NCBI GenBank assembly: GCA_048213135.1
Contig: PS015140.1
Coordinates: 62,001 to 91,466 of the forward strand
DNA: 29,466 nucleotides
Source of the DNA: Reclinomonas americana ATCC 50394
Lineage: Eukaryota
Reading direction: 5' to 3'
The notes below the pieces were generated by a model. That model was not told where the DNA came from, searched no databases, and worked only from the letters and a program-made list of their open reading frames with translations. The translations under genes were made by a program, and so were the position numbers. Positions 311 to 27,900 of the stretch are shown here, piece by piece. How positions within the stretch are numbered: position 1 is the first letter of the stretch; the number at the start of each line of letters is the position of its first letter.

Positions 311-3300
311 CTAGTCGGTCACTTCCTCGATGCCGACGCCACCCACAGCACCAAGCGCATTGGTGAAATCGGGCAAGACGGTGCCGAAGATGCGTTCCAC
401 AAGCCCGCGAGTGTGTTGACGTATGAATAGCATCACCCTGCCGGACACCCGGGCGGTGTACGCAGAACCGAACGCCGTGCTGCGAAGAAGAGTCACACGA
501 TCCACCGCAGGAGTCACCAGATCTGCCTGCTCATGAAGAGACACTTCATCTCCAGTAAACAGTGACCACACTCGCACTGTATTGTCAGACCCGCCACTTA
601 TAATGTGCTGGCCATCGGGTGTCACTGCCACTGCAAACACCCGACTCGTGTGGCCTTCCAGTCGGCGTACCTCCTCACCACTTGCCATTGACCACAACCT
701 CAGAGTATTGTCATTACTGCCACTTACAATGTGCTGACCATCGGGTGTCACTGCCACTGCAAATACCGCGCCAGTGTGGCCTTCCAGTCGCCGTACCTCC
801 TCGCCACTTGCCATCGACCACATCCTTACATCGTCCCCGTCGTTGGAGATGAACAAACTCCCGCTGCAACTCACAATGTGCTGCCCATCGGGTGTTACAG
901 CCACTGCCGACACCGACTCTGTGTGCCCCTCCAGTCGGCGCACCTCCTCGCCATTTGCCAGCGACCACACTCGTACAGTCTTGTCGAAACTGCCACTCAC
1001 AATGTGCTGGCCATCCGGCGTCACTGTCACCGCAAACACCCTCTCCGTGTTGTCCTCCAATCGGCGCACCTCCTCACCACTTGCCAGCGACCACACCCGT
1101 ATAGTCTTGTCCTCACTGCCACTCACAATGTGCAGGCCATCGGGTGTCACCGCCACTGCCCACACCTTATCCGTGTGGCCTTCCAGTCGGCGCATCTCCT
1201 CGCCACTTGCCAGTGACCACACCCGTACAGTCTTGTCCCAACTGCCACTAACAATGTGCTGGCCATCAGGTGTCACTGCCACTGCAAGCACCCTACTCGT
1301 GTGGCCTTCCAGTCGGCACACCTCCTCGCCACTCGACAGCGACCACACCAGTACCGTCTTGTCCCAACTGCCACTCACAACATGCTGGCCATTGGGTGTC
1401 ACTGCCACTGTATACACCCAATCTGTGTGACCTTCCAGTCGGCGTACCTCCTCGCCACTTGCCACAGACCACATCCGCACAGTCTCGTCCCCACTGCCAC
1501 TCACAATGTGCTGGCCATCGGGTGCCACTGCCACTGCCCACACCCTACTCGTGTGACCTTCCAATCGGCGCACCTCCTCGCCACTTGCCACCGACCACAT
1601 CCGCACAGTCTTGTCATCACTGCCACTCAGAATGCGCTGGCCATCGGGTGTCACTGCCACTGCAGATACCGATCTCGCGTGGCCTTCGAGTCGGCGCACC
1701 TCCTCGCCACTTGCCGCCGACCACACCCGCACAGTATTGTCATCGCTGCCACTCACGATGAACTGCCCATCGGGTGTCACTGCCACTGCATACACCCTAC
1801 TCGTGTGCCCTTCCAGTCGGCGCACCTCCTCGCCACTTGCCACCGACCACACTCGTATAGTCCCGTCCCCACTGCCACTCACAATGTGATGGCCATCGGG
1901 TGTCACTGCCACTGCATGCACCGAATTCGTGTGGCCTTCCAGTCGGCGCACCTCCTCGCCACTTGCCACCGACCACACCCATACAGTCCCGCCTTCACAG
2001 CCACTCACAATGTGCTGGCCATCGGGCGTCACTGCTACTGCATTCACCCCATTCGTGTGGCCTTCCAGTCGGCGCACCTCCTCGCCACTTGCCACCGACC
2101 ACACCCGTACAGTCATATCCCAACTGCCGCTCACAATGTGCTGGCCATCAGGTGTCACTGCCACTGCAAGCACCCTACTCGTGTGGCCTTCCAGTCGACG
2201 CACCTCCTCGCCACTTGCCACCGACCACATCCGCACAGTCTTGTCCCAACTGCCACTCACAATATGTTGACCGTCAGGAGTGACAGCAACAGACACAACA
2301 TAGCTGGTGTGCCCGACCATCGGCTTCCTCGGCCACCTCACATCCGTCACATCCGCCCCTCTGAAATCCGCCTCTCTCGCATACGCCATGCACACATTCA
2401 CCCCACGCAATTCAGCTGCACACCACACCGTCCTGTGCATCACCACATCCCTCAAATCCGCACCCCTCACTCGCACACCCGACAGATCTCGCCCACTGAA
2501 CGACACTTGCGCCACACACAACACCGTTGCCGCATTCGCCGCTGCCGTCACCACTCTCTCCTCATCCACCTCGCGTGACATCTCAATCACCTCCCACAAC
2601 CTCGCTTGCAATGCAGGAGACCGTCGCACCACCTCGGCCACCTGCTCCACCAGCGATGGTCGATCGTTCAGCAGCCGCACAGACAACACATGCTGCTGCA
2701 CATCTTGCACCGACAATCTCCTCTCCTCATCCCACGTCTCCCACGCAAACACATGCCGCGCCACACAGTGCTCCAGCAGCGAACCCCACTGCGTCGTCCC
2801 ATACCGTCGCACAATTGGACAACACACTCGCACATGCTGGTTCTTGTGACCGAGGAACTTGTCAAACGGTCCCTCTTCCGCACGTCGCACGGTGAGTGGT
2901 GCACCATCAAAGTCATCCTCACTTGATTGACTCTCCATCACGGACACACGAACCACATTCCTCTCGTGCATCAACCGCGCCAGCCCCTCACAGAATGCCA
3001 GACACGTCTCCTCACTCGGCACACGCTCCGCACCGAGACGCGTCTGCCTCTCCTGCTCCCTCACAATCCACTGTCGAATGAATCGGTCAAACACATCGCA
3101 CCGAGTCGGTCGCAGCACGCCACTCGCCACCAACTGCGGCAACACACGAGCCACCACTGCCAGCAGGAAGGGATTCGACACCAATGCATCCAGTCCATGC
3201 ACCTTTTTCAGTGCACGAATGTACTCCTCGGCAGTCGACCATCGCACTTCGCCACCGTCATCATCATCATCAATACCCACTTGCACCAGTCTCACGAAAT

Positions 3301-5110
3301 ACTCCTCAATCTGCTCTTTGTTGAACGGTGCAATGTGTCGCTCCATCAACTGCTGAACGCACAACTGTCCTCGTGCATCCACTGGTGCAAAGTACCGTCG
3401 ATACTGCGCTGCAGCGCCCAGTGCCGTCAGTGCATAATCGCCTCGACACGTGATAATCACCTTCAGATCGCGACACACATCCAGCTGGTTCTTGACAAAC
3501 AGATTCACACCACGATACAACTCGTCGTACCCATCAAGTAACAACAGCAGTGGTTCCTCCTTCAACCGTCGCACGTCCGATTCCAATCCCAACTCGGGTG
3601 ACAGTCGCTCCAGTGCCTCCTCCAATAATCGCTCGTCGGCATTGCGCAGTGCGCCGAGAGGCACACGCACAGGCACTCGTCTGCTTTCTCTCGTCTGCCA
3701 CTGCCGCCACGCTCGTTCGGCCAGCACCGACATCGTGGTGGTCTTGCCGGCTCCACTGTTGCCAAAGAGCACCAGCACACGATGGGAGGTGTTGGTGTCG
3801 GAGAGGAACACAGTCACCTCCGTCAACAGATCCGTCATCTTGTCTCGCGACGAGACATCACGATCACGTGAACACAGCAGTGGCACATACATCTGCATGT
3901 CCTGGTGCACACTCTCGTCGTGCTGATAGAATGAGAGCTCACGCACAGCCAGTCGATGCAGTCGCTCCTCGAATGTGCTGATGATGTGCTGAACGTGACG
4001 CGCCTCTCGAATCCGCGCCGCAAAACCGTCAATCTCGTCGGCAGGCAGCTGCAACTTGCCAAGGAGTGTAAGGAACGTGCCATAGTCACCGAGACACTCA
4101 TGAACGCTGAACTCGGTCCATGCCCACGAACCGTGAACCAGTTCGTTCCGCACTTTACGCAACAGCTCCAGCGCCTTGCGTTCATCAACGTCGTCAATCA
4201 GAAGCATCTGGCGACCGTCACCAAGCACAAAGCCACCAAACAGCAAGATGGATGCCAAGGCCGTCACGTCAAAGGTGTCACACGGAGGGTCGGAGGCGGG
4301 ATCGGAATCAAAGGCAGACTTCCAGTCGAGCATGTGCTGCTGCTGCTGCGCAAACAACTTGACTCGACCGGGGACGAGAGGTGCATGCTGATCGTGCCAC
4401 GTCTTGATCGTTGTTGGATGCCAGAACAATGGTGGCATCCACACATCGGGAGTCCACGCCCGCACATCAAAGTCGGGAAGATCGCGACTGAACTGCGCCA
4501 GCGCGCGTTGACAGCGCAGACGCACGGCCTCCTCCACCACCTCAAAGGCCATGTTAATGCGCTGCGAGTTGATCATGCTGTGCGTGCACACACAGACACA
4601 GTCAGCACGGACTAGCATCGAGTGAAGAACAAGGAAGGGACGAGGGCAAGCAAAACAAACCGCGTCACTCTCTCCGAGTTGCTGTGCGAGGACATGAGAG
4701 TGAGAAGAATGCTTTACACAGAGGACGGTTCACAAAGCACACCTTCCACTCTCACTTCCACTCCCTCCACTCGACAGCAGCGCCGAGCCAAGCGTCAGAC
4801 GGACGACAAGATGAGTGGATGAGGTGATGCCGAGATCCTCCAGCTCCAAGACGTCAGCCTTGGCCACCTTGTATGGTACAGGCTTCTCCACCCCCACAAT
4901 CTCCATCTCCCCATCTCCACTCTTCTCACGCAGCAAGCGAGTGGCCTCGCGCAGCAAGTCCGCCAGAGTGGACATGGCCGACATGCCCTCCACCACCACC
5001 GACAGCGACGAATCATGCGCCGCACTCACATGCACAGAGAACTGTGACACACACAAGGCAGTGAGCACACACAGCGAAAGGGAAAAGAAAACAAATAAAC
5101 GCACCGACAT
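311..5110 (-). CDS. NLR-like STAND NTPase: Ubl - HEPN - NACHT - pentapeptide repeat - 14x WD40 (NWD/HET-E-like), ~1530 aa
   Basis: Predicted exons 5110-5105 (ATG TCG), 5041-4743, 4681-4661 and 4577-311. Introns are GT-AG (GTGCGT..CACAG, GTGTGC..CACAG, GTTTGT..CACAG) with CTCAC/CTGAC branch-like motifs. Phases are consistent and the CDS is 4593 nt (1531 codons). Walker A GNSGAGKT at 3740-3763, Walker B LLLLDGYDE at 3521-3550, then ITCR and NPFLL motifs, then WD40 repeats. Confidence 0.9.
551..2314 (-). repeat. Coding tandem array of 14 WD40 repeats, 126-bp (42-aa) unit, high nucleotide identity
   Basis: Unit GHTxxVxAVAVTPDGQHIVSGSxDxTVRVWSVASGEEVRRLE is repeated 14 times. The nucleotide string 'ccttccagtcggcgcacctcctcgccacttgcca' recurs at 126-bp spacing. 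Repeat 12 carries an insertion (SGSLFISNDGDD). Confidence 0.97.
2333..2500 (-). other. Pentapeptide-repeat segment between NACHT and WD40
   Basis: FSGRDLSGVRVRGADLRDVVMHRTVWCAAELRGVNVCMAYAREADFRGADVTDVRW shows 5-residue A(D/N)Lxx periodicity, preceded by AAANAATVL. Confidence 0.85.
4050..4550 (-). other. HEPN-like domain (DZIP3/Swt1-type) with R-x4-H motif
   Basis: FDVTALASILL...LELLRKVRNELVH. The RNELVH motif is at 4133-4150, in a predicted helical context just N-terminal to the NACHT. Domain boundaries are approximate. Confidence 0.7.
4796..5110 (-). other. N-terminal ubiquitin-like (beta-grasp) domain of the NLR-like gene
   Basis: Spliced translation is MSFSVHVSAAHDSSLSVVVEGMSAMSTLADLLREATRLL...LELEDLGITSSTHLVVRL. 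The pattern is two beta strands, then T-L-A-D-L helix, then a C-terminal LEDLGITSSTHLVVRL resembling ubiquitin LSDYNIQKESTLHLVLRL. There is no diglycine directly after it. Confidence 0.6.
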
Positions 5111-5697
5111 AGTGTGCGTGGTGTTCTGTTCTCCGTTGTGTTTATCACAAATTCCTGTCAATGAAGTTGTCGCAGCTGGCGGGTTTCTTCAGTGACATCG
5201 ATCCTTGCAAGCCAAACCAAGCCGGGAAGAGAGGGCATGCCTTGACCAGTTCGCTGATGATTCCGAAGGAAGGAACAGGCTGCAGGCCGTTCGTGACCCC
5301 CTTGCTGACAGCCCACTGCGAACGACGAAGGCTGAACCCGGTTGGAAGAAATCCAGCACTGCTGAGCAGAACCTGAAAGGAAAAAGATTGACGAGAGCGT
5401 CTTGCGTGTCACAAGTAACCCGCTTGCTAATGGCAAGCAAGTCACTGCCCAACCCACTGCGAAGGAGGCTGGCTGGACCGGTAATCTGCTTGTCGACAAG
5501 CCTGGAAATGAAACCGACGGATTCGATTAGGCACAGGCTGAGCGTTGTGCGTAATCCCCTTGCAGATAGGAGACATGTCGGTGCTCAGTCCACCACGGAG
5601 AACGCTGGCAGGATCAGAGATCAACAAGACCATGGCACTGAGTGGTGGCCTGCCCACTGCGCTGATAAAAAGCATTTGGGTCTTCGATTTACAGTCG

Positions 5698-8247
5698 TTA
5701 TGAGAGGAGGACAGGCAGGGCGGCCACCGGCATGCTTTCGATGCCGTTCTCGTCGACACCACGCAAGATGCGGAAGAAACCGTCTTCACCCCACGAGCGG
5801 CCCCCTGTTCGAACAAGAGAGGGAGAGATGAGGGAGGGACAAATAGACAGGGATGTGAGGAGAGGGTGAAGAGGGAGAGAGAGAGAGAGGAGGGACGGGA
5901 GGAGAGAGAGGGAGGGGGAGGAGAGAAGAAAGGAGGAGAGAGAGGAGGAGAGAGAGAGAGAGGAGCGGTCGAGAGTGAGAGAGAGAGTGGAGAGAGAGAG
6001 AGTGTAGTACGAAACAGACGAGCAGTGAGCNNNNNNNNNNNNNNNNNNNNAGAGAGAGAGGAGGAGGAGGGAGGAGAGAAAAGGAGGGAGGAGAAGAGAG
6101 GGAGAGACAGAGAGAGGAGCGGTCGAGAGTGAGAGAGAGAATGGGAGAGAGAGAGAGTGAGTTGAAACAGACAGCAGTGAGCGATCGAACGAGAAGGACA
6201 AACAGACAGGCGAGGGAAAGGAAGAGAGAGAGAGAGAGAGAGAGAGGTGCAGGTAGTGGAAGAGAGGATAGGAGGGTGCAAGCCGAATGCATCTTCGGGA
6301 AGAAAGGAGCGAGGAAGAGAAAGAGAGTGTGCATGAACAAACGGACGCAACAAGAGTTCTGCACGATCCAGTAGCGATCGACCTGTCGTGTGGTCTCGTT
6401 CAGTTCCTCGCCCCATCCAACTGCAAGCGAATGGATCAGGCATAGGCAACGGAAACGAAAAAGCACTGAAGTGACAAACCAATGAGGACGGCGTGCGTAG
6501 TGGGCTCGAAAGAATGTCGCCACGATGAGTGCATGTGCTGGTTGGCCAGCTTGCGGTAAATGCCGGACGAGTACAGGCTCCATTCGCCCGTCTACATCGC
6601 AAAGAGTGAGTGGACGAGGAAGAGAGAGAGAGTGACGGGCGAGACAACTCTTGTCACAAACCGCGGCAAAGCAGGCGGCGATCGGACCGTTTCGCAGGAT
6701 TTCCTCCATCATCGATTGTTCGGTGGCCGCGCCGAAGAAGCCTGACGAGGGGGGAAGGGGAGGAAGAGGGTAAAGGTGAGCGGGAGAGAGGGAAGGGGGG
6801 AAAGGGAAAGGGAAGAGGGAAGAGGGAAGAGGGAAGAGGGGAAGAGGGAAGAGGGAGAAGAAGAGGCAGAGGAAGAGGAAGAGGAAGAGGAAGAGGAAGA
6901 GGAAGAGGAAGAGGAAGAGGAAGAGGGAAGAGGGAAGAAGGAAGAGGGAAGAGGGAAGAGGCAGGGGCAGAGATCGAAGAGGATGAAGCGGTAGAGGAAA
7001 ACGGAGAAGAAAGAGGAAGAGGGACACAGAAGAGGGGAAGAATGAAGATGAGGACTGCGAGAGCGTCGGAAACGACGAAAGAAAGAACGTACAGTCAGGG
7101 ACAGTCAGTTGGAAGAAGTGAGACAGAGAGACTGAGAAAAGAAAGAGTGCAGAACAAGCGAATGCACGAATGCAGCCGCAAACTCACCGCCGACATAATA
7201 GTAATCAGCAACTTGGACGACACGACGACGACCGCACGAGCCGCGGCATGTGTAGGTGTCGCTGCCCTTGTATGGCTGGCACGACTGTATCGAGGGGTAA
7301 AGAGACAAGGTGAGTGGGGAGAAGGGCAGGGGGAAGGGAGGGAAGTTCTCGACATAAAACAGAGAGAGAGAGAGAGAGCCACAACTAAAGGCCAGCACTG
7401 CACTTGTCCTCCCTGCTCACCTCATCAACCGCGCCAAACGAATGCGCAAACTTGGAGGCCAAGTACGGCCACCCACCGCCGCATCCTTGCGACCAGGGTG
7501 AGCACGAGAGAGCCCGTTGTGGCGAGAGTGTCAGCTGCGCACGCCCAAGTCAGCAACTGTGGTCATGCAATGGCGACGCAAGAGCGACGCACCTGTTCCT
7601 TGTTCTTTGTCGACACTCGCAGACGTGCCTCCAGCATTGCAGTGGTGGCCACCGAGTAGCTGAAGAAGAATGAGTGTCACGGAGGAGCGCGATGGCGAAG
7701 ACTTGCCACTCACCAGCTGCCACAGGCACCTTGCGTGCTGTTGCACGAGGTGGATGAGATGCAGATCTTTGCTTCAGTCACAAACGAAAGCACTAACCGA
7801 ACAGGTGGCACAAAGTTCTCGCCATTCACATTGCGCCAGTCAAAGAAGCGCGGCAAGTGGGAGGTCTCGATATTGGTGAGGTAGCCAGTGGAAATGGCCT
7901 GCATAACGAGGAAAGATGAGCACAACAGATGAGGCCTTGCGATTCATGATTGCACACACCGATGCGTGCGCCGCACGAGCTGCGCTACCGGCGCGATGGT
8001 GCCGGCCTCCTGACATGAGTTGTTGCTGTGGAATGCAAGAGCGCAAGGTGAGCATACAACATGGAAGGATACGAGATGCTCCGACAAGCGACAACTATTC
8101 AACTCCACGTGGGGCACTCTATTACTAATTCTATTCCAGCAACATTCCCTCTCTTCGTCATCTCAAGAAGGAGAGAAGGCAATAGAAAAAAGAGATACAC
8201 AGAGACAGAGACATGCAGGCAGACATACATACACAACGGGAGAAAGT

Positions 8248-13619: not shown

Positions 13620-15828
13620 GCGTCGTCGGCACCGGTTCAGCTACGCTCGGCGGCCCTGCCGAAGCCATGGCGCCGGTGACGAAGAAAGGCGTCGAGATGC
13701 CGGCGGTGGACCACGTGGCCGTGCCGTCTCAGCACGCACAACCCGCGGTGTAATGGGACTTGCACTAATACCGCCAACTGTTACCATGTTGGCGTGCCGA
13801 AAACTGAATACAGACGGTACTCATGCGAAAACCAGTCCAACAACACATGTCGAGACGGGCAGCAACTACCTGCGGGCAGGTGCGCGCCACCATTGGTTCC
13901 GCGACACGTTTTGATGCAACGTTTTCTTCCTGCGTGGAATGGAAATGTTCGGATTCATTGTGTTGCATCATATTGACCAGTTTTTTGTAAGCTCACGAGA
14001 CGATCTGTGGACGGAAGGCCCGTTTTCGTCTCTCAAGATGCCTTCACCACTGCACCTAACAAATTCATTCACCAACAAACAAGCAACAGCTGTTTTGATG
14101 ACCCAAGTTCAACCGCAGCGTATCCAATACATCAACACNNNNNNNNNNNNNNNNNNNNTTCCATTACCATTTTCTCTGTGGTGCTACATGTGCGGTTTCG
14201 TGCCAGAGATGCGCAGGTACGCGCAATCGATGTGTACAAATAAATGACGCTACAACAAGCACACGACGCGAATACAAACACACAGACAGACAGACGCACT
14301 CGCCCAGAAGACGTGCCAGTGTTGACAGATTGCAGTTTATCACACATTTATACTCACGCATTCACAATCTCGCTTCACCCTCTCGTCTCGCTTTGTCTCT
14401 TTAATCTAACAGTATCGATGCCATCCTCCTCACCTTACCATTATCAGTACTGTCACCATCACGCGCATCTCTCTCGTCCACAAACACATCCACGCAACAC
14501 CACACGAAGACACAGACAGCAGTTCACGGCCATCTCCATGGCAAGAACCACCTCTCACGCACCGCGCACACTCACAGAGAGAGAGACAGAGAAAGAAGCA
14601 CACAGAAAACGGCCACTCACTCCATCCCGACTTGTCTTTCGCACACAAACACGCTCAATCAGTCTCACTCACACAGGCATTCTCGCACAAAGTCTTACCC
14701 ATTCACTCTTGGTGTACTTCTCTGTATCTCTGTCTCCTGTCTCCTGAGGTGCCTCCTGAATCTCAAACTTCTAGATCAAGATCTCTCATTCTGCTCACTT
14801 CACGCTGACTGACCGATACTCACTCTCTCAGTTTCACACTCACACGCTCACCTACAGTCTCAGTCGCAACGCGGTCCACTTCGGGACCACTATGGGCGGG
14901 CCCGCTGTGGCACCAGAAATGAGAGCCGTCAACGTTCACGACTGCATCACTCACAACAAACAACTGAAGCTCGCATGCGGGCGCCCACACTGACAACGGC
15001 GACGTCGAACGGAGAGCCTGTGAGTGTCCACACTGACAACAACAGCTGGAGAGCCTGTGTGCACGAGTGATGGGTGGGTGGGAGTTAATGCTCACACAGG
15101 CGTGACGGCGGGAATTCGCAAACAAATCTGCCGCGCACCCCTTTGCTGTTTTGCGCCAGAGGTTGCTGAGTGCACAGACAAGACACGCACGATATATTTT
15201 GGAAGCGAGCAGCAGCGGTGAGCTGCGTGCTCTCAGACAACTGCGCGAGAATGTGTGAGGACTAATGGTGCTCGCGCTCGCGCGGGTCGCCGGTCCTCTG
15301 CGCGGGAGTGTGTGACGCCACAGTTTTGCTTGCGTGCCTGTTGTGTGCGATGCGTGTGTCCCGCTCTCCCGTTGCGTGTCACTGTGTACGAGTGATCAAG
15401 GGCTCCTGGTAAGTGCCTCCAGCTCCGCTGCCTCCTCTTGTGAGAGGAAGAGAGACTCAAGAGAGAGAGAGAGGAGGGGGGAAGAGGGAATGAGAGAGAG
15501 AGCNNNNNNNNNNNNNNNNNNNNTGACGATTGGCATGAAGTCGCTGGAGAGGTTCACTATGTAGACGTCACTCTCCTCTACTGCCAAGTCACTGCTGATG
15601 CTCGAGCTTGAGAGCGCTCTTGGCGACTGATGGCTAATGCTGTGACTGGAGATGTGTGGCTTGAGTCGCGGTCGAAGACGGTCACTCAAGCGCTGCATTA
15701 GACTCAAGCAGAGAGTACGCTTGAGGCTGATGCACTGGCTTGGACAGAAGCACCGACACAAGTCACGCTTCTGCCAGACTTGACAGGCAAGCCATGGGTT
15801 GCTAGGCATGTCACTTCTTGCAGGGAAA

Positions 15829-16171
15829 NNNNNNNNNNNNNNNNNNNNNNNNNNNNNNNNNNNNNNNNNNNNNNNNNNNNNNNNNNNNNNNNNNNNNNNN
15901 NNNNNNNNNNNNNNNNNNNNNNNNNNNNNNNNNNNNNNNNNNNNNNNNNNNNNNNNNNNNNNNNNNNNNNNNNNNNNNNNNNNNNNNNNNNNNNNNNNNN
16001 NNNNNNNNNNNNNNNNNNNNNNNNNNNNNNNNNNNNNNNNNNNNNNNNNNNNNNNNNNNNNNNNNNNNNNNNNNNNNNNNNNNNNNNNNNNNNNNNNNNN
16101 NNNNNNNNNNNNNNNNNNNNNNNNNNNNNNNNNNNNNNNNNNNNNNNNNNNNNNNNNNNNNNNNNNNNNNN
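15829..16171. other. Assembly gap (other gaps at 6031-6050, 14139-14158, 15504-15523, 19627-20229, 26677-26770)
   Basis: Runs of N. Confidence 0.99.
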
Positions 16172-16476: not shown

Positions 16477-20503
<4,027 letters not shown>

Positions 20504-24900: not shown

Positions 24901-27900
24901 TCTTGTGCGCGTTGTGATGTCGCTCACAGTCGTTCGGTGCAGAAGGTCAAGGCATTGAGCAAGAGCTCACGAGAGCGCCGGGACGAGACGCCACCCGCAC
25001 CTCCTGCTGCAGAATCCAGCAACAAGAAGAAGGAGGAGGTAGCCGACGTGGACGAGGAGGACGAGGTGCATGTGGTGGAGATGCCGCGGCCATCCTCCGG
25101 GCCTCCTCGTGCCGGCAAGCGCGGTCGGCCACGATGGATTCCCGTGCCGACAGCGCCAATCGCCCCCAAACCTGTGACAGCACTCTCTCCCTCACCGGCA
25201 GCCGCAGAAAAAGGACGTGGCGCCAAGAAGGCCAAGAAGCAGAGGAAGAAGAAGGGCAGGAAGCTGGGATCGTCGTCGTCATCGTCCTCGTCGTCGTCCG
25301 ACGAGGATTTCGTGGCCGGAAGCGAGAGCGGTGCCGGGGACGACGGGGATGACGACTTGGAGGACTTCGAGCTGGTCAAGGAGTCGCACAGTTGCGCTCG
25401 TCACGCTTGTTCTCGTTTTTCATTCCTCGACCTGACCGTGTGGCGATGCAGAGTCGGATCGCAAGCAAAAGGGCACGCCGGTGCGAACCAGCCGACGCAA
25501 TCGCAAGCCGACGACTCATTTCCTCGACGAATTGGAGTCGACAGAGAAGAAGGGCAAGAAGCGGAACAGGTGCAGTGGAGTGCAGAGTGCTGGCAAAAAG
25601 CGATATTTTTGTGTCTGAACTTCCTGCGCAGCGGCCGTCTGCCGTCACTCTCCGCCGCCTCCTCCTCGTCCGAGTTGGATTCGGATTCAACCGGTCGTGG
25701 CAAGAGAATGTGCGTGGGAGTTGTCGCCTGCAGTGTGTTTAATTTGCTTTGTCATCAGACTCCTTGCTGGACGCAGGTCCGTCGACAAGGTGATGCCGTT
25801 GAACCTCGACGAGGAGTCGCTCCCGAGCGACGATGACAAGAAGAAAAAGAAAAGAAGAAGAAGGAGGTGGAAGAGGAGGAGCAGGAGGAGGTGCAGGAGG
25901 AGGAGGAAGAGGCAGCGGCGGAGGAGCCGGCTCCCGAGAGTGCGGAGGCGATGGAGGAGGATCAAGAGGTGGAGCAGGAGGAGGAGAAGAAGCAGGAGGA
26001 AGAGGAGGAGAGGGAGAAGGAGGAGGAGGAGGAAGAGGACGAGGACGATGAGAGGGAGAGGAAGTCAGCAAAGAAGAAGAAGAAGGGAGCGTCGCGGAGT
26101 GAGCGTCCGCCGCCGTCGGATAACACCAGGCTCAAGTCGAAGAAGTCGAAGAGGTGCGTGGATTGAGGGGAAGGGATGGAGGGAAAGGGAATAGGGAGTA
26201 AGGGATGGAGGGGAAGGGATGGACGGGAAGAGGTAGAGGGGAAGGATGGAAGGGAAGGGATGGAGGGGAAGGGATGGAGGGGAAGGGATGGAGGGGAAGG
26301 GATGGAGGGGAAGGGATTGAGGGGAAGGATTGTGGGGAAGGGATGGAGGAGAAGGGATAGAGGGGAAGGGATGGAGGGGAAGGGATTGAGGGGAAGGGAT
26401 GGAGGGGGAAGAGATGAAGGGGAAGGGATGGAGGGGAAGGGATAGAGGGGTAGAAGGGAAGGGATGGAGGGGAAGGGATGGAGGGGAAGGGATGGAGGGG
26501 AAGGGATTGAGGGGAAGGATTGTGGGGAAGGGATGGAGGAGAAGGGATAGAGGGGAAGGGATGGAGGGGAAGGGATTGAGAGTGAGGTGACGGAAGGGGA
26601 ATTGTGAAGGTGATGATGAACACAACACACTCCAACAAACCTCAGGCGATCAATGGCCTGTGCACCGTGCACAATCNNNNNNNNNNNNNNNNNNNNNNNN
26701 NNNNNNNNNNNNNNNNNNNNNNNNNNNNNNNNNNNNNNNNNNNNNNNNNNNNNNNNNNNNNNNNNNNNNNAGGATGAGGAAGGATAGGGTAGAGGAGGAG
26801 TGGAGGAAGGATGGAGGGAAGGATGGAGGGAAGGATTGAGGGAAGGATGTGGGAAGGGATGGAGGAGAAGGGATAGAGGGAAGGGATGGAGGGAAGGGAT
26901 TGAGGGAAGGGATGGAGGGGAAGAGATGAAGGGGAAGGGATTGAGGGGAAGGGATTGAGGGGAGGAGATGGAGGGGAAGGGATTGAGGGGAAGGGATTGA
27001 GGGGAAGGGATGGGTACAAAAGAACAGTTAAGACGTAAAAGAATGTGGAGTGAGCGAAGGATGAACGAGAACATGTAAATAAGGGAGTACAGAATGGACA
27101 TGCTTGTCACTGCAATAGATTGAGAAGAAAAGAAAGGGGCAAGGGAAGATGTCGAAGAAGACGAATGGAGAGGATATTTTTCCCTCTGCCTTTCTCGCGA
27201 CCCCCTTTCCTTGTTCTCCTCCTCCCGATAATGCGCGTGTGCCAGTCTTCTGTCTTCTCTTCTTGATACACCTTTCAGCAAGAGAGAGCGCGCGCAACTT
27301 TGTTACCTCCACGACCTCTCATGAATGTGGAGAGAGAGAGGGTAGAGTGAAGTAAATGAGAGATGGAGGTAGGAGGAGGGCGATTCGAAGCATCTGAGGA
27401 AGGAGGTAGGAGGGGTGAGGGAAAGGCGAGAAGAGGACGGAGAAGAGGGAGAGAATAGCAGGTGAGGCTGGGGAGAGGAGCAGATGAATATCGAGAGGAA
27501 AGCGTGAGCTGAGTGCAAAGTACGAGCCCTTCCCTCTTTTGTCTCTCACCGGTGTTGCACTTTGACAGGTCACGAGAGGCGGAGGTCGCCGACGAGTCAG
27601 CCGCAGACACTCCGGCCTCGCCTCGCCCCGAGTCACCGCCACGCAAGCAGGCCAAGCACAAGCAGGGCAGCATTGCCTCGCGCGCTGCCGCTGGGACGCC
27701 ACCAGTGGAGAGCCTCACCAAGCAACCCTCCTCGTCCTCCTCCAGCAAGAACGGCAAGAGCAAGCCGTCGGTGGAGTCACCGCAAGTCACCAAGGTGTCG
27801 GTGCCCGAGGTGACGGTGGATTCGGACATGTCCGAGTCGCCAGCGCCGCCCAAGCCGATGAATGGCAAGCAGCGACGTGAGAAGGAACGGCTCGCCAAGC

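Follow-up and report, generated by a model that had tools for sequence, protein, structure and literature searches.

Proteins that join a HEPN domain to a NACHT NTPase have been described in several groups of organisms. The DZIP3/hRUL138 HEPN was reported as fused to NACHT, TPR, LRR, DEATH, and other domains, with expansions in Nematostella, oyster, and Capsaspora (PMC3710099, Table 1), and bacterial proteins combining an N-terminal HEPN with a STAND (signal transduction ATPase with numerous domains) module were noted by the same authors (Anantharaman et al. 2013, PMC3710099). In the pearl oyster, more than 50 NACHT proteins carry an N-terminal DZIP3-like HEPN, whose commonest motif form is R-x4-H with N after R, and NACHT proteins whose C-terminus is of the TPR or WD40 type also occur there (Takeuchi et al. 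2022, PMC9646362), while anthozoans encode 17 to 83 HEPN-NACHT proteins per species (Emery et al. 2021, PMC8260672). These coral and oyster HEPN-containing NOD-like receptors (NLRs) are termed only predicted or putative RNases in the text available from the three sources (PMC3710099, PMC9646362, PMC8260672). For bacterial NACHT (bNACHT) proteins, the domains reported as fused to NACHT include HEPN, and the sensors include beta-propellers and pentapeptide repeats (Kibby et al., 10.1101/2022.07.19.500537). Here, we analyzed a predicted gene at positions 311 to 5110, minus strand, of a 29,466-nucleotide (nt) stretch of Reclinomonas americana ATCC 50394 (GenBank assembly GCA_048213135.1, contig PS015140.1, positions 62,001 to 91,466). 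The whole stretch is called the window, and all positions refer to it. The balance of evidence tips modestly toward an NLR-like STAND gene with a NACHT-pentapeptide-WD40 core of fungal/bacterial type, a HEPN-type RNase in its head, and a small alpha/beta module before it.

Proteins built on the effector-NACHT-repeat logic and headed by a HEPN are already established. The initial annotation of this locus did not recognize its architecture from any characterized protein, a statement that finds no support in view of the HEPN-NACHT-LRR/TPR/WD40 proteins described in oysters and cnidarians and the HEPN-STAND proteins of bacteria (PMC3710099, PMC9646362, PMC8260672). The pentapeptide-WD40 tail is common to the fungal and endosymbiont relatives of the gene. 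What is new is the combination of an orphan HEPN-like head and a small module with a NACHT-pentapeptide-WD40 core of fungal/bacterial type in an intron-bearing eukaryote.

The core of the protein lies in a single long open reading frame (ORF) of 1435 amino acids (aa) on the minus strand (311..4618), and ORF residue numbers below are those of this 1435-codon frame. The NACHT NTPase is encoded at 3443..3781 (-), where the Pfam stretch covers ORF residues 280-392 (PF05729, E 1.9e-8, 34.8 bits against a cut-off of 26.7). Its Walker A motif GNSGAGKT at ORF residue 286 (window 3740-3763) and Walker B motif LLLLDGYDE at residue 358 (window 3521-3547) are both intact. A pentapeptide-repeat stretch follows at 2339..2551 (-) (approximately ORF 690-760, top Pfam stretch 705-729); its PF00805 score, obtained over two stretches, is borderline, 20.6 bits against a cut-off of 20.2. 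The WD40 array occupies 530..2314 (-) and consists of fourteen repeats of 42 aa each, one of them of 49 aa, encoded by 126-nt units. Pfam recognized all 14 stretches (E 1.1e-164), and Tandem Repeats Finder reported a period of 126 with 11.1 and 2.1 copies and 84% matches. The ORF and its NACHT and WD40 domains are clearly above chance. The intact Walker motifs, pentapeptide repeats, 14 WD40 repeats, and single-chain STAND/NLR-type layout of N-terminal module, NACHT, pentapeptide stretch, and WD40 sensor thus all agree with the initial annotation. Long frames on the plus strand opposite the WD40 array (window 731-2578, e.g., 1256-2578, 440 aa) were also observed; these frames arise from the 126-nt repeat and do not speak for an antisense gene.

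Fourteen self-similar WD40 repeats would be enough for two seven-bladed propellers. Judged by eye, the differences between units fall mostly at unit positions 4, 5, 7, and 23-25, and by analogy such nearly identical repeats suggest a sensor that diversifies fast, like those of the fungal HET-E/NWD kind. NACHT-WD40 proteins have non-immune roles too, and the gene could encode a housekeeping or signaling scaffold working in the manner of the Apaf-1 or TEP1-type NTPase-WD40 proteins rather than an immune or cell-death receptor. We regard such a scaffold as quite improbable, given that the WD40 units are near-identical in DNA and differ at few positions, which is the pattern of fungal NLR sensors (PMC4986451), and that the head is an orphan, as expected for fast-evolving conflict genes. 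The fungal HET-E/HET-D/NWD proteins share with this protein the NACHT and WD40 domains and a high conservation of repeats; in fungal NLRs the WD repeats show approximately 85% internal identity (Dyrka et al. 2014, PMC4986451), a figure that refers to amino acids, whereas the 84% matches found here refer to DNA. In contrast to these fungal proteins, the R. americana protein has a pentapeptide stretch, and no HET domain was found in it with Pfam.

A search with ORF residues 15-700 returned 13 proteins at E <= 0.001 among 8000 candidates scored, with 25-29% identity. The five that are named come from Mycoavidus cysteinexigens, Glomeribacter, Haplosporangium gracile, Linnemannia elongata, and Mortierella, and no animal protein is among these five. 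ORF residues 196-768 aligned with residues 443-1028 of the Mycoavidus protein P0006 (28% identity, E 5e-45) and residues 213-762 with residues 625-1168 of the Haplosporangium protein P0009 (27% identity, E 4e-39), both alignments running collinearly from NACHT through the pentapeptide stretch. According to precomputed domain lists, PF00805 is present in at least 8 of the 13 relatives. As judged from these alignments, the region from NACHT to the pentapeptide stretch is homologous to NLRs from Mortierellomycota and from the Burkholderia-related endosymbionts of these fungi.

This homology ends just upstream of NACHT. Walker A lies at approximately residue 530-790 in 11 of the 13 relatives (at 70 and 144 in the remaining two), and their N-termini match the query solely over the last 60-90 residues or so before Walker A. 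The head, made up of the first ~195 ORF residues and the predicted upstream exons, is different and lineage-specific. Pfam scans of three Mycoavidus N-termini gave sub-threshold TPR matches in one of them and nothing else. Long helical N-termini with NACHT and WD40 have been described in Mortierellomycetes and Mycoavidus (Wojciechowski et al., 10.1101/2022.03.16.484565). The NLRs of Mortierellomycota, Mycoavidus, and Glomeribacter treated in that preprint thus resemble the present protein from the homologous pre-NACHT helix, across NACHT and the helical domains, to the pentapeptide stretch and in the WD40 arrays that follow, and they differ from it in N-termini that are mostly ~530 aa or longer and do not align with its head. 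The words "RNase," "ribonuclease," and "HEPN" are absent from the available text of the preprint. The R. americana gene is further set apart from these NLRs by its spliceosomal-type introns and by an unrelated head with a HEPN motif. As a separate observation on this group, metagenome-assembled genome records of Mycoavidus cysteinexigens (L001-L008) contain at least eight paralogous NACHT-WD40 loci in three assemblies, 54-80% identical to the Mycoavidus protein used as query, and four of these loci share one 543-kb scaffold.

The HEPN-like helical region of the head is encoded at 3974..4366 (-) (approximately ORF 85-215). It contains the sequence RNELVH (4133..4150, minus strand; ORF 157-162, corresponding to residues 252-257 of the spliced protein described below), a strict R-N-x3-H followed by G, and FDVTAL stands ~40 residues before it; both are present in the order given by the initial annotation. 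In 261 aa, chance alone would produce the strict form 0.0095 times. The bare R-x4-H, expected 0.83 times in the same length, is not above chance; R-x4-6-H is found three times within the first 280 residues. In a predicted model, RNELVH is located at the end of a helix, as in aligned HEPN families, although the predicted local distance difference test (pLDDT) score of this model is only 39.

Profile comparisons pointed to the same residues. A PADLOC scan of the head gave CARF_HEPN as the sole match among 5027 models (E 0.0075, 24 residues, at the motif), and in ten CARF-HEPN members the matched profile positions correspond to the catalytic RN..AHG motif, to which RNELVH is aligned. The head scored 26.5 in hhalign against the HEPN half of CARF-HEPN, a value reached by none of 250 shuffles (mean 13.0, standard deviation 2.4, maximum 22.8), and the reversed sequence scored 11.3. 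In a protein-language-model atlas, both the whole head and its core had DZIP3/hRUL138-like HEPN clusters as neighbors (0.79-0.81, lead level), and the best named matches belonged to one clan in 10 of 10 cases for the whole head and 9 of 10 for the core. The head thus appears to be most like the DZIP3/hRUL138-type HEPN of many cnidarian and mollusc NLRs, and we consider it reasonably probable from the sequence that it contains a true HEPN domain.

Several results weigh against a HEPN head. When the six motif residues were masked, the hhalign score of 26.5 fell to 14.0, which is background, the negative control with the CARF half scoring 15.4. The PADLOC and hhalign evidence hence restates the motif, since the signal disappears with these six residues. 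Against a profile of 12 bacterial Swt1-type HEPN domains, the hhalign score was 17.3, which 8 of 200 shuffles reached and the reversed sequence exceeded (21.8), so that it is not significant; with the motif masked it was 15.1. Of the 401 genomes scanned for this profile, 13 had a match, and two rows scoring under the family cut-off were excluded. The Swt1-type alignment, itself of nonsignificant score, keeps FDVTAL, the motif, and the next helix in register and is collinear. The atlas scores are under the 0.9 line of the tool, and shuffled proteins attain 0.8 a third of the time. The AlphaFold2 (AF2) single-sequence model of the head is all-helical, but its pLDDT of 39.0 is too low to show a fold. 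No Pfam HEPN family matched the head or the protein at E <= 10, and NCBIfam returned 0 families. A phmmer search for homologues of the head against 1.84 billion representatives gave 0 at E <= 0.001.

Other searches with the head were likewise negative. None of 256 candidates scored in a word-indexed search of proteins of 143-457 aa reached E <= 10, and 110 pattern matches in metagenome contigs included zero relatives. Comparison with PDB sequences gave chance-level rows only (E 0.36 and 1.5), and PHROGs gave one family at E 0.25. The DZIP3/hRUL138-like HEPN family PF18738 itself had no Pfam match to the protein at E <= 10; when sought in Pseudomonadota, it was found in 0 of 401 genomes and 0 of 14 control genomes.

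The head could instead be a lineage-specific helical adaptor or another effector, with RNELVH as a chance string, in a protein that would still be an NLR-like STAND. The loss of profile likeness upon masking, the absence of Pfam and NCBIfam HEPN matches, the nonsignificant Swt1 comparison, and the lead-only range of the atlas scores all speak for such a head, as does the fact that the nearest relatives have unrelated N-termini of ~530 aa, called helical solenoids in the text seen of 10.1101/2022.03.16.484565. Against a chance string stand the low expectation of the strict R-N-x3-H in the region and its position at the end of a predicted helix, and the language-model neighbors converge on one family, the one known to head NACHT proteins. 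The calibration also bears on this point: two genuine HEPN profiles scored 30.0 against each other across 33 motif-centered columns, and because genuine HEPN profiles recognize each other only around the motif at this level, a motif-only signal is normal for the HEPN superfamily. We therefore rate a non-HEPN head as rather unlikely. The HEPN RNase head proposed by the initial annotation is plausible but thinly supported, by its strict motif and DZIP3-like neighbors; a significant profile match to a HEPN family outside the motif was not found.

The head begins upstream of the long ORF. Joining the exons 5110-5105, 5041-4743, 4681-4661, and 4577-311 on the minus strand yields one uninterrupted predicted frame of exactly 1530 aa, so that the in-frame addition of three small upstream exons to the long ORF, as first proposed, was reproduced from the exon coordinates. 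Proposed coding exon 1 (5105..5110, minus strand) consists of two codons followed by a GT donor, and its ATG at 5110 is the first after the in-frame stop (5189-5191) that closes the frame. Exon 2 (4743..5041, minus strand; ~99 codons) encodes the small alpha/beta module. A mini-exon 3 of 21 nt, which we infer only, is placed at 4661..4681 (-); it is optional by sequence, as its omission, read from the coordinates, preserves the frame and would give a protein of 1523 aa. The main exon (311..4577, minus strand, stop codon at 311-313) encodes the HEPN-like region, NACHT, pentapeptide stretch, WD40 array, and a C-terminal tail of ~72 aa.

The three proposed introns are 63, 61, and 83 nt long, and all three have GT...CACAG ends. 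Intron 1 (5042..5104, minus strand; GTGCGT...CACAG) is pyrimidine-rich, and its size and ends are as in the introns of a neighboring Rab-type GTPase gene; the reading frame is still kept if its 63 nt are left in the transcript. Intron 2 (4682..4742, minus strand) begins with GTGTGC. Intron 3 (4578..4660, minus strand) begins with GTTTGT, a donor type also found in the Rab gene. An alternative, consensus-looking GTGAGA donor at 4755, 13 nt upstream of the intron 2 donor, was rejected because it breaks the frame. On the 5' side, the gene is bounded by a Peptidase_C1 gene on the same strand that ends near 5700, which leaves ~590 nt for a promoter and untranslated regions (UTRs).

It is conceivable that the upstream exons lie outside this protein, which would then start at an internal ATG (ORF residue 15 or 23), with the upstream frame being a 5' UTR, a separate small ORF, or chance. 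Exon 1 is merely two codons and exon 3 merely 21 nt, ATG codons sit just inside the acceptor of the main exon, and a family or fold match for the exon-2 peptide was not found, all of which would fit such a start. Codon usage argues for the joined protein: exon 2 scores +0.12 bits per codon in the joining frame against -0.33 and -0.67 in the other two, the yardstick being +0.10 bits per codon for the WD40 part, which was kept out of training. It shares the codon bias of the main ORF in no frame but the proposed one. Moreover, the upstream frame is free of stops for 152 codons, the ends and lengths of all three junctions (61-83 nt) resemble those of the ~70-nt introns of the Rab gene, and the ~150 nt from the stop codon of the exon-2 frame to the internal ATG leave scant room for another gene. 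We consider the internal start unlikely and retain the four-exon model.

The locus is, as a predicted model, an intact eukaryotic gene with introns. That the DNA is eukaryotic follows from the spliceosomal-type introns that split the neighboring Ras-family gene. A prokaryotic origin of the gene was considered and rejected on account of its own introns and its intron-split neighbors.

The module encoded by exon 2 had been described as a ubiquitin-like head, an assignment that our searches did not confirm. No ubiquitin family matched the exon-2 peptide in Pfam at E <= 10, the sole match being Methyltransf_8 (E 0.28), nothing was found in NCBIfam or PADLOC, and PDB sequences gave 0 matches. The AF2 model (pLDDT 61.4) has the order strand-strand-helix-strand-strand-strand, which is compatible with a beta-grasp. 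The top Foldseek match in the PDB had E 0.11, and of the 11 chains that a wide VIA search returned at Z >= 5, none had Z >= 8, the top Z of 6.4 belonging to de novo designs; no ubiquitin-like structure was among the fold matches listed by Foldseek and VIA. The ubiquitin-like fold is thus unconfirmed, though conceivable. A ubiquitin-like domain and a HEPN in one chain would be shared with sacsin, in which the former is N-terminal and the latter C-terminal, and with proteins in which KEN domains are fused to UBI (PMC3710099). The remaining architecture of these proteins is unrelated to that of the R. americana gene, where the ubiquitin-like nature of the module is only putative.

Directly upstream of the gene, at 5698-7200 (-), are exon fragments of the papain-family Peptidase_C1 protease gene, the last exon of which matches the end of the Pfam profile; the gene looks cathepsin C-like, and a run of N at 6031-6050 interrupts it. 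The intergenic DNA separating the protease gene from the NLR-like gene contains, at 5309-5615, a 30-nt core in three direct copies, 63-80% identical to the reference copy and spaced by 141 and 136 nt. They may represent a promoter element or else a small repeat. The Rab-type GTPase gene is located at 16990-19190 (+), with Ras-family exons at 17120-17245 and 18865-19017. A search with a Rab exon found 22 proteins with 59-67% identity, four of them named Rab-14 by JGI. The introns of this gene include ones of ~70 nt with GT...(C)ACAG ends, one of which has a GTTTGT donor, and a CT-rich one of ~1.5 kb. Much of the noncoding DNA of the window is taken up by long low-complexity CT/GA tracts, which produce many spurious long ORFs on both strands. 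The assembly is a draft with six N runs totaling 1100 bases, namely, the gap in the protease gene and 14139-14158, 15504-15523, 15829-16171, 19627-20229, and 26677-26770.

In comparison to the cnidarian and bivalve HEPN-NACHT NLRs, the R. americana protein shows the same succession of an N-terminal R-x4-H with N after R, NACHT, and a C-terminal repeat region, which is LRR, TPR, or WD40 in those proteins, and their DZIP3-like clusters are the nearest atlas neighbors of its head. It differs from the DZIP3-like family in the missing PF18738 match and in the fungal and bacterial identity of the core relatives found. Further, the text consulted in PMC3710099, PMC9646362, and PMC8260672 makes no mention of a pentapeptide spacer in the animal HEPN-NACHT proteins. 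With the bacterial HEPN-STAND and bNACHT defense proteins, the gene shares the effector-NACHT-repeat logic; it differs from bNACHT in being eukaryotic with introns, and no bacterial protein with this head appeared in the homologue searches. If the head is a HEPN, its fusion to NACHT is probably, though not demonstrably, independent of the animal one, because the core relatives found are fungal and bacterial and none of the five named ones is animal.

The protein may work as follows, if other STAND proteins and the HEPN RNases are taken as models. Binding of a ligand on the variable face of the WD40 propellers would release autoinhibition, and the NACHT domains would swap nucleotide and oligomerize. 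The heads clustered in this way could pair into composite HEPN active sites, which would cleave RNA and lead to cell arrest or death.

We propose, tentatively and as a possibility of less than even weight, that a non-animal eukaryote independently built an RNase-armed NLR by grafting an orphan DZIP3-like HEPN, preceded by a small module that may be ubiquitin-like, onto a NACHT-pentapeptide-WD40 core of the type that early-diverging fungi share with their bacterial endosymbionts. Should the head not be a HEPN, the gene would be another lineage-specific NLR with an undefined effector. If the proposal is true, HEPN-NACHT would be a convergently reinvented design, and it would suggest that a single-celled or early-branching eukaryote uses RNA degradation in the style of abortive infection as an immune output. 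An active head would offer a compact single-chain system for testing oligomerization as the switch of a eukaryotic HEPN domain. It would also mean that the same effector was gained separately by NACHT-pentapeptide-WD40 proteins of the fungal/bacterial type and by the animal DZIP3-HEPN-NACHT NLRs, and such a separate gain, if true, would lend weight to the idea that death effectors are exchanged freely among STAND receptors of different kingdoms.

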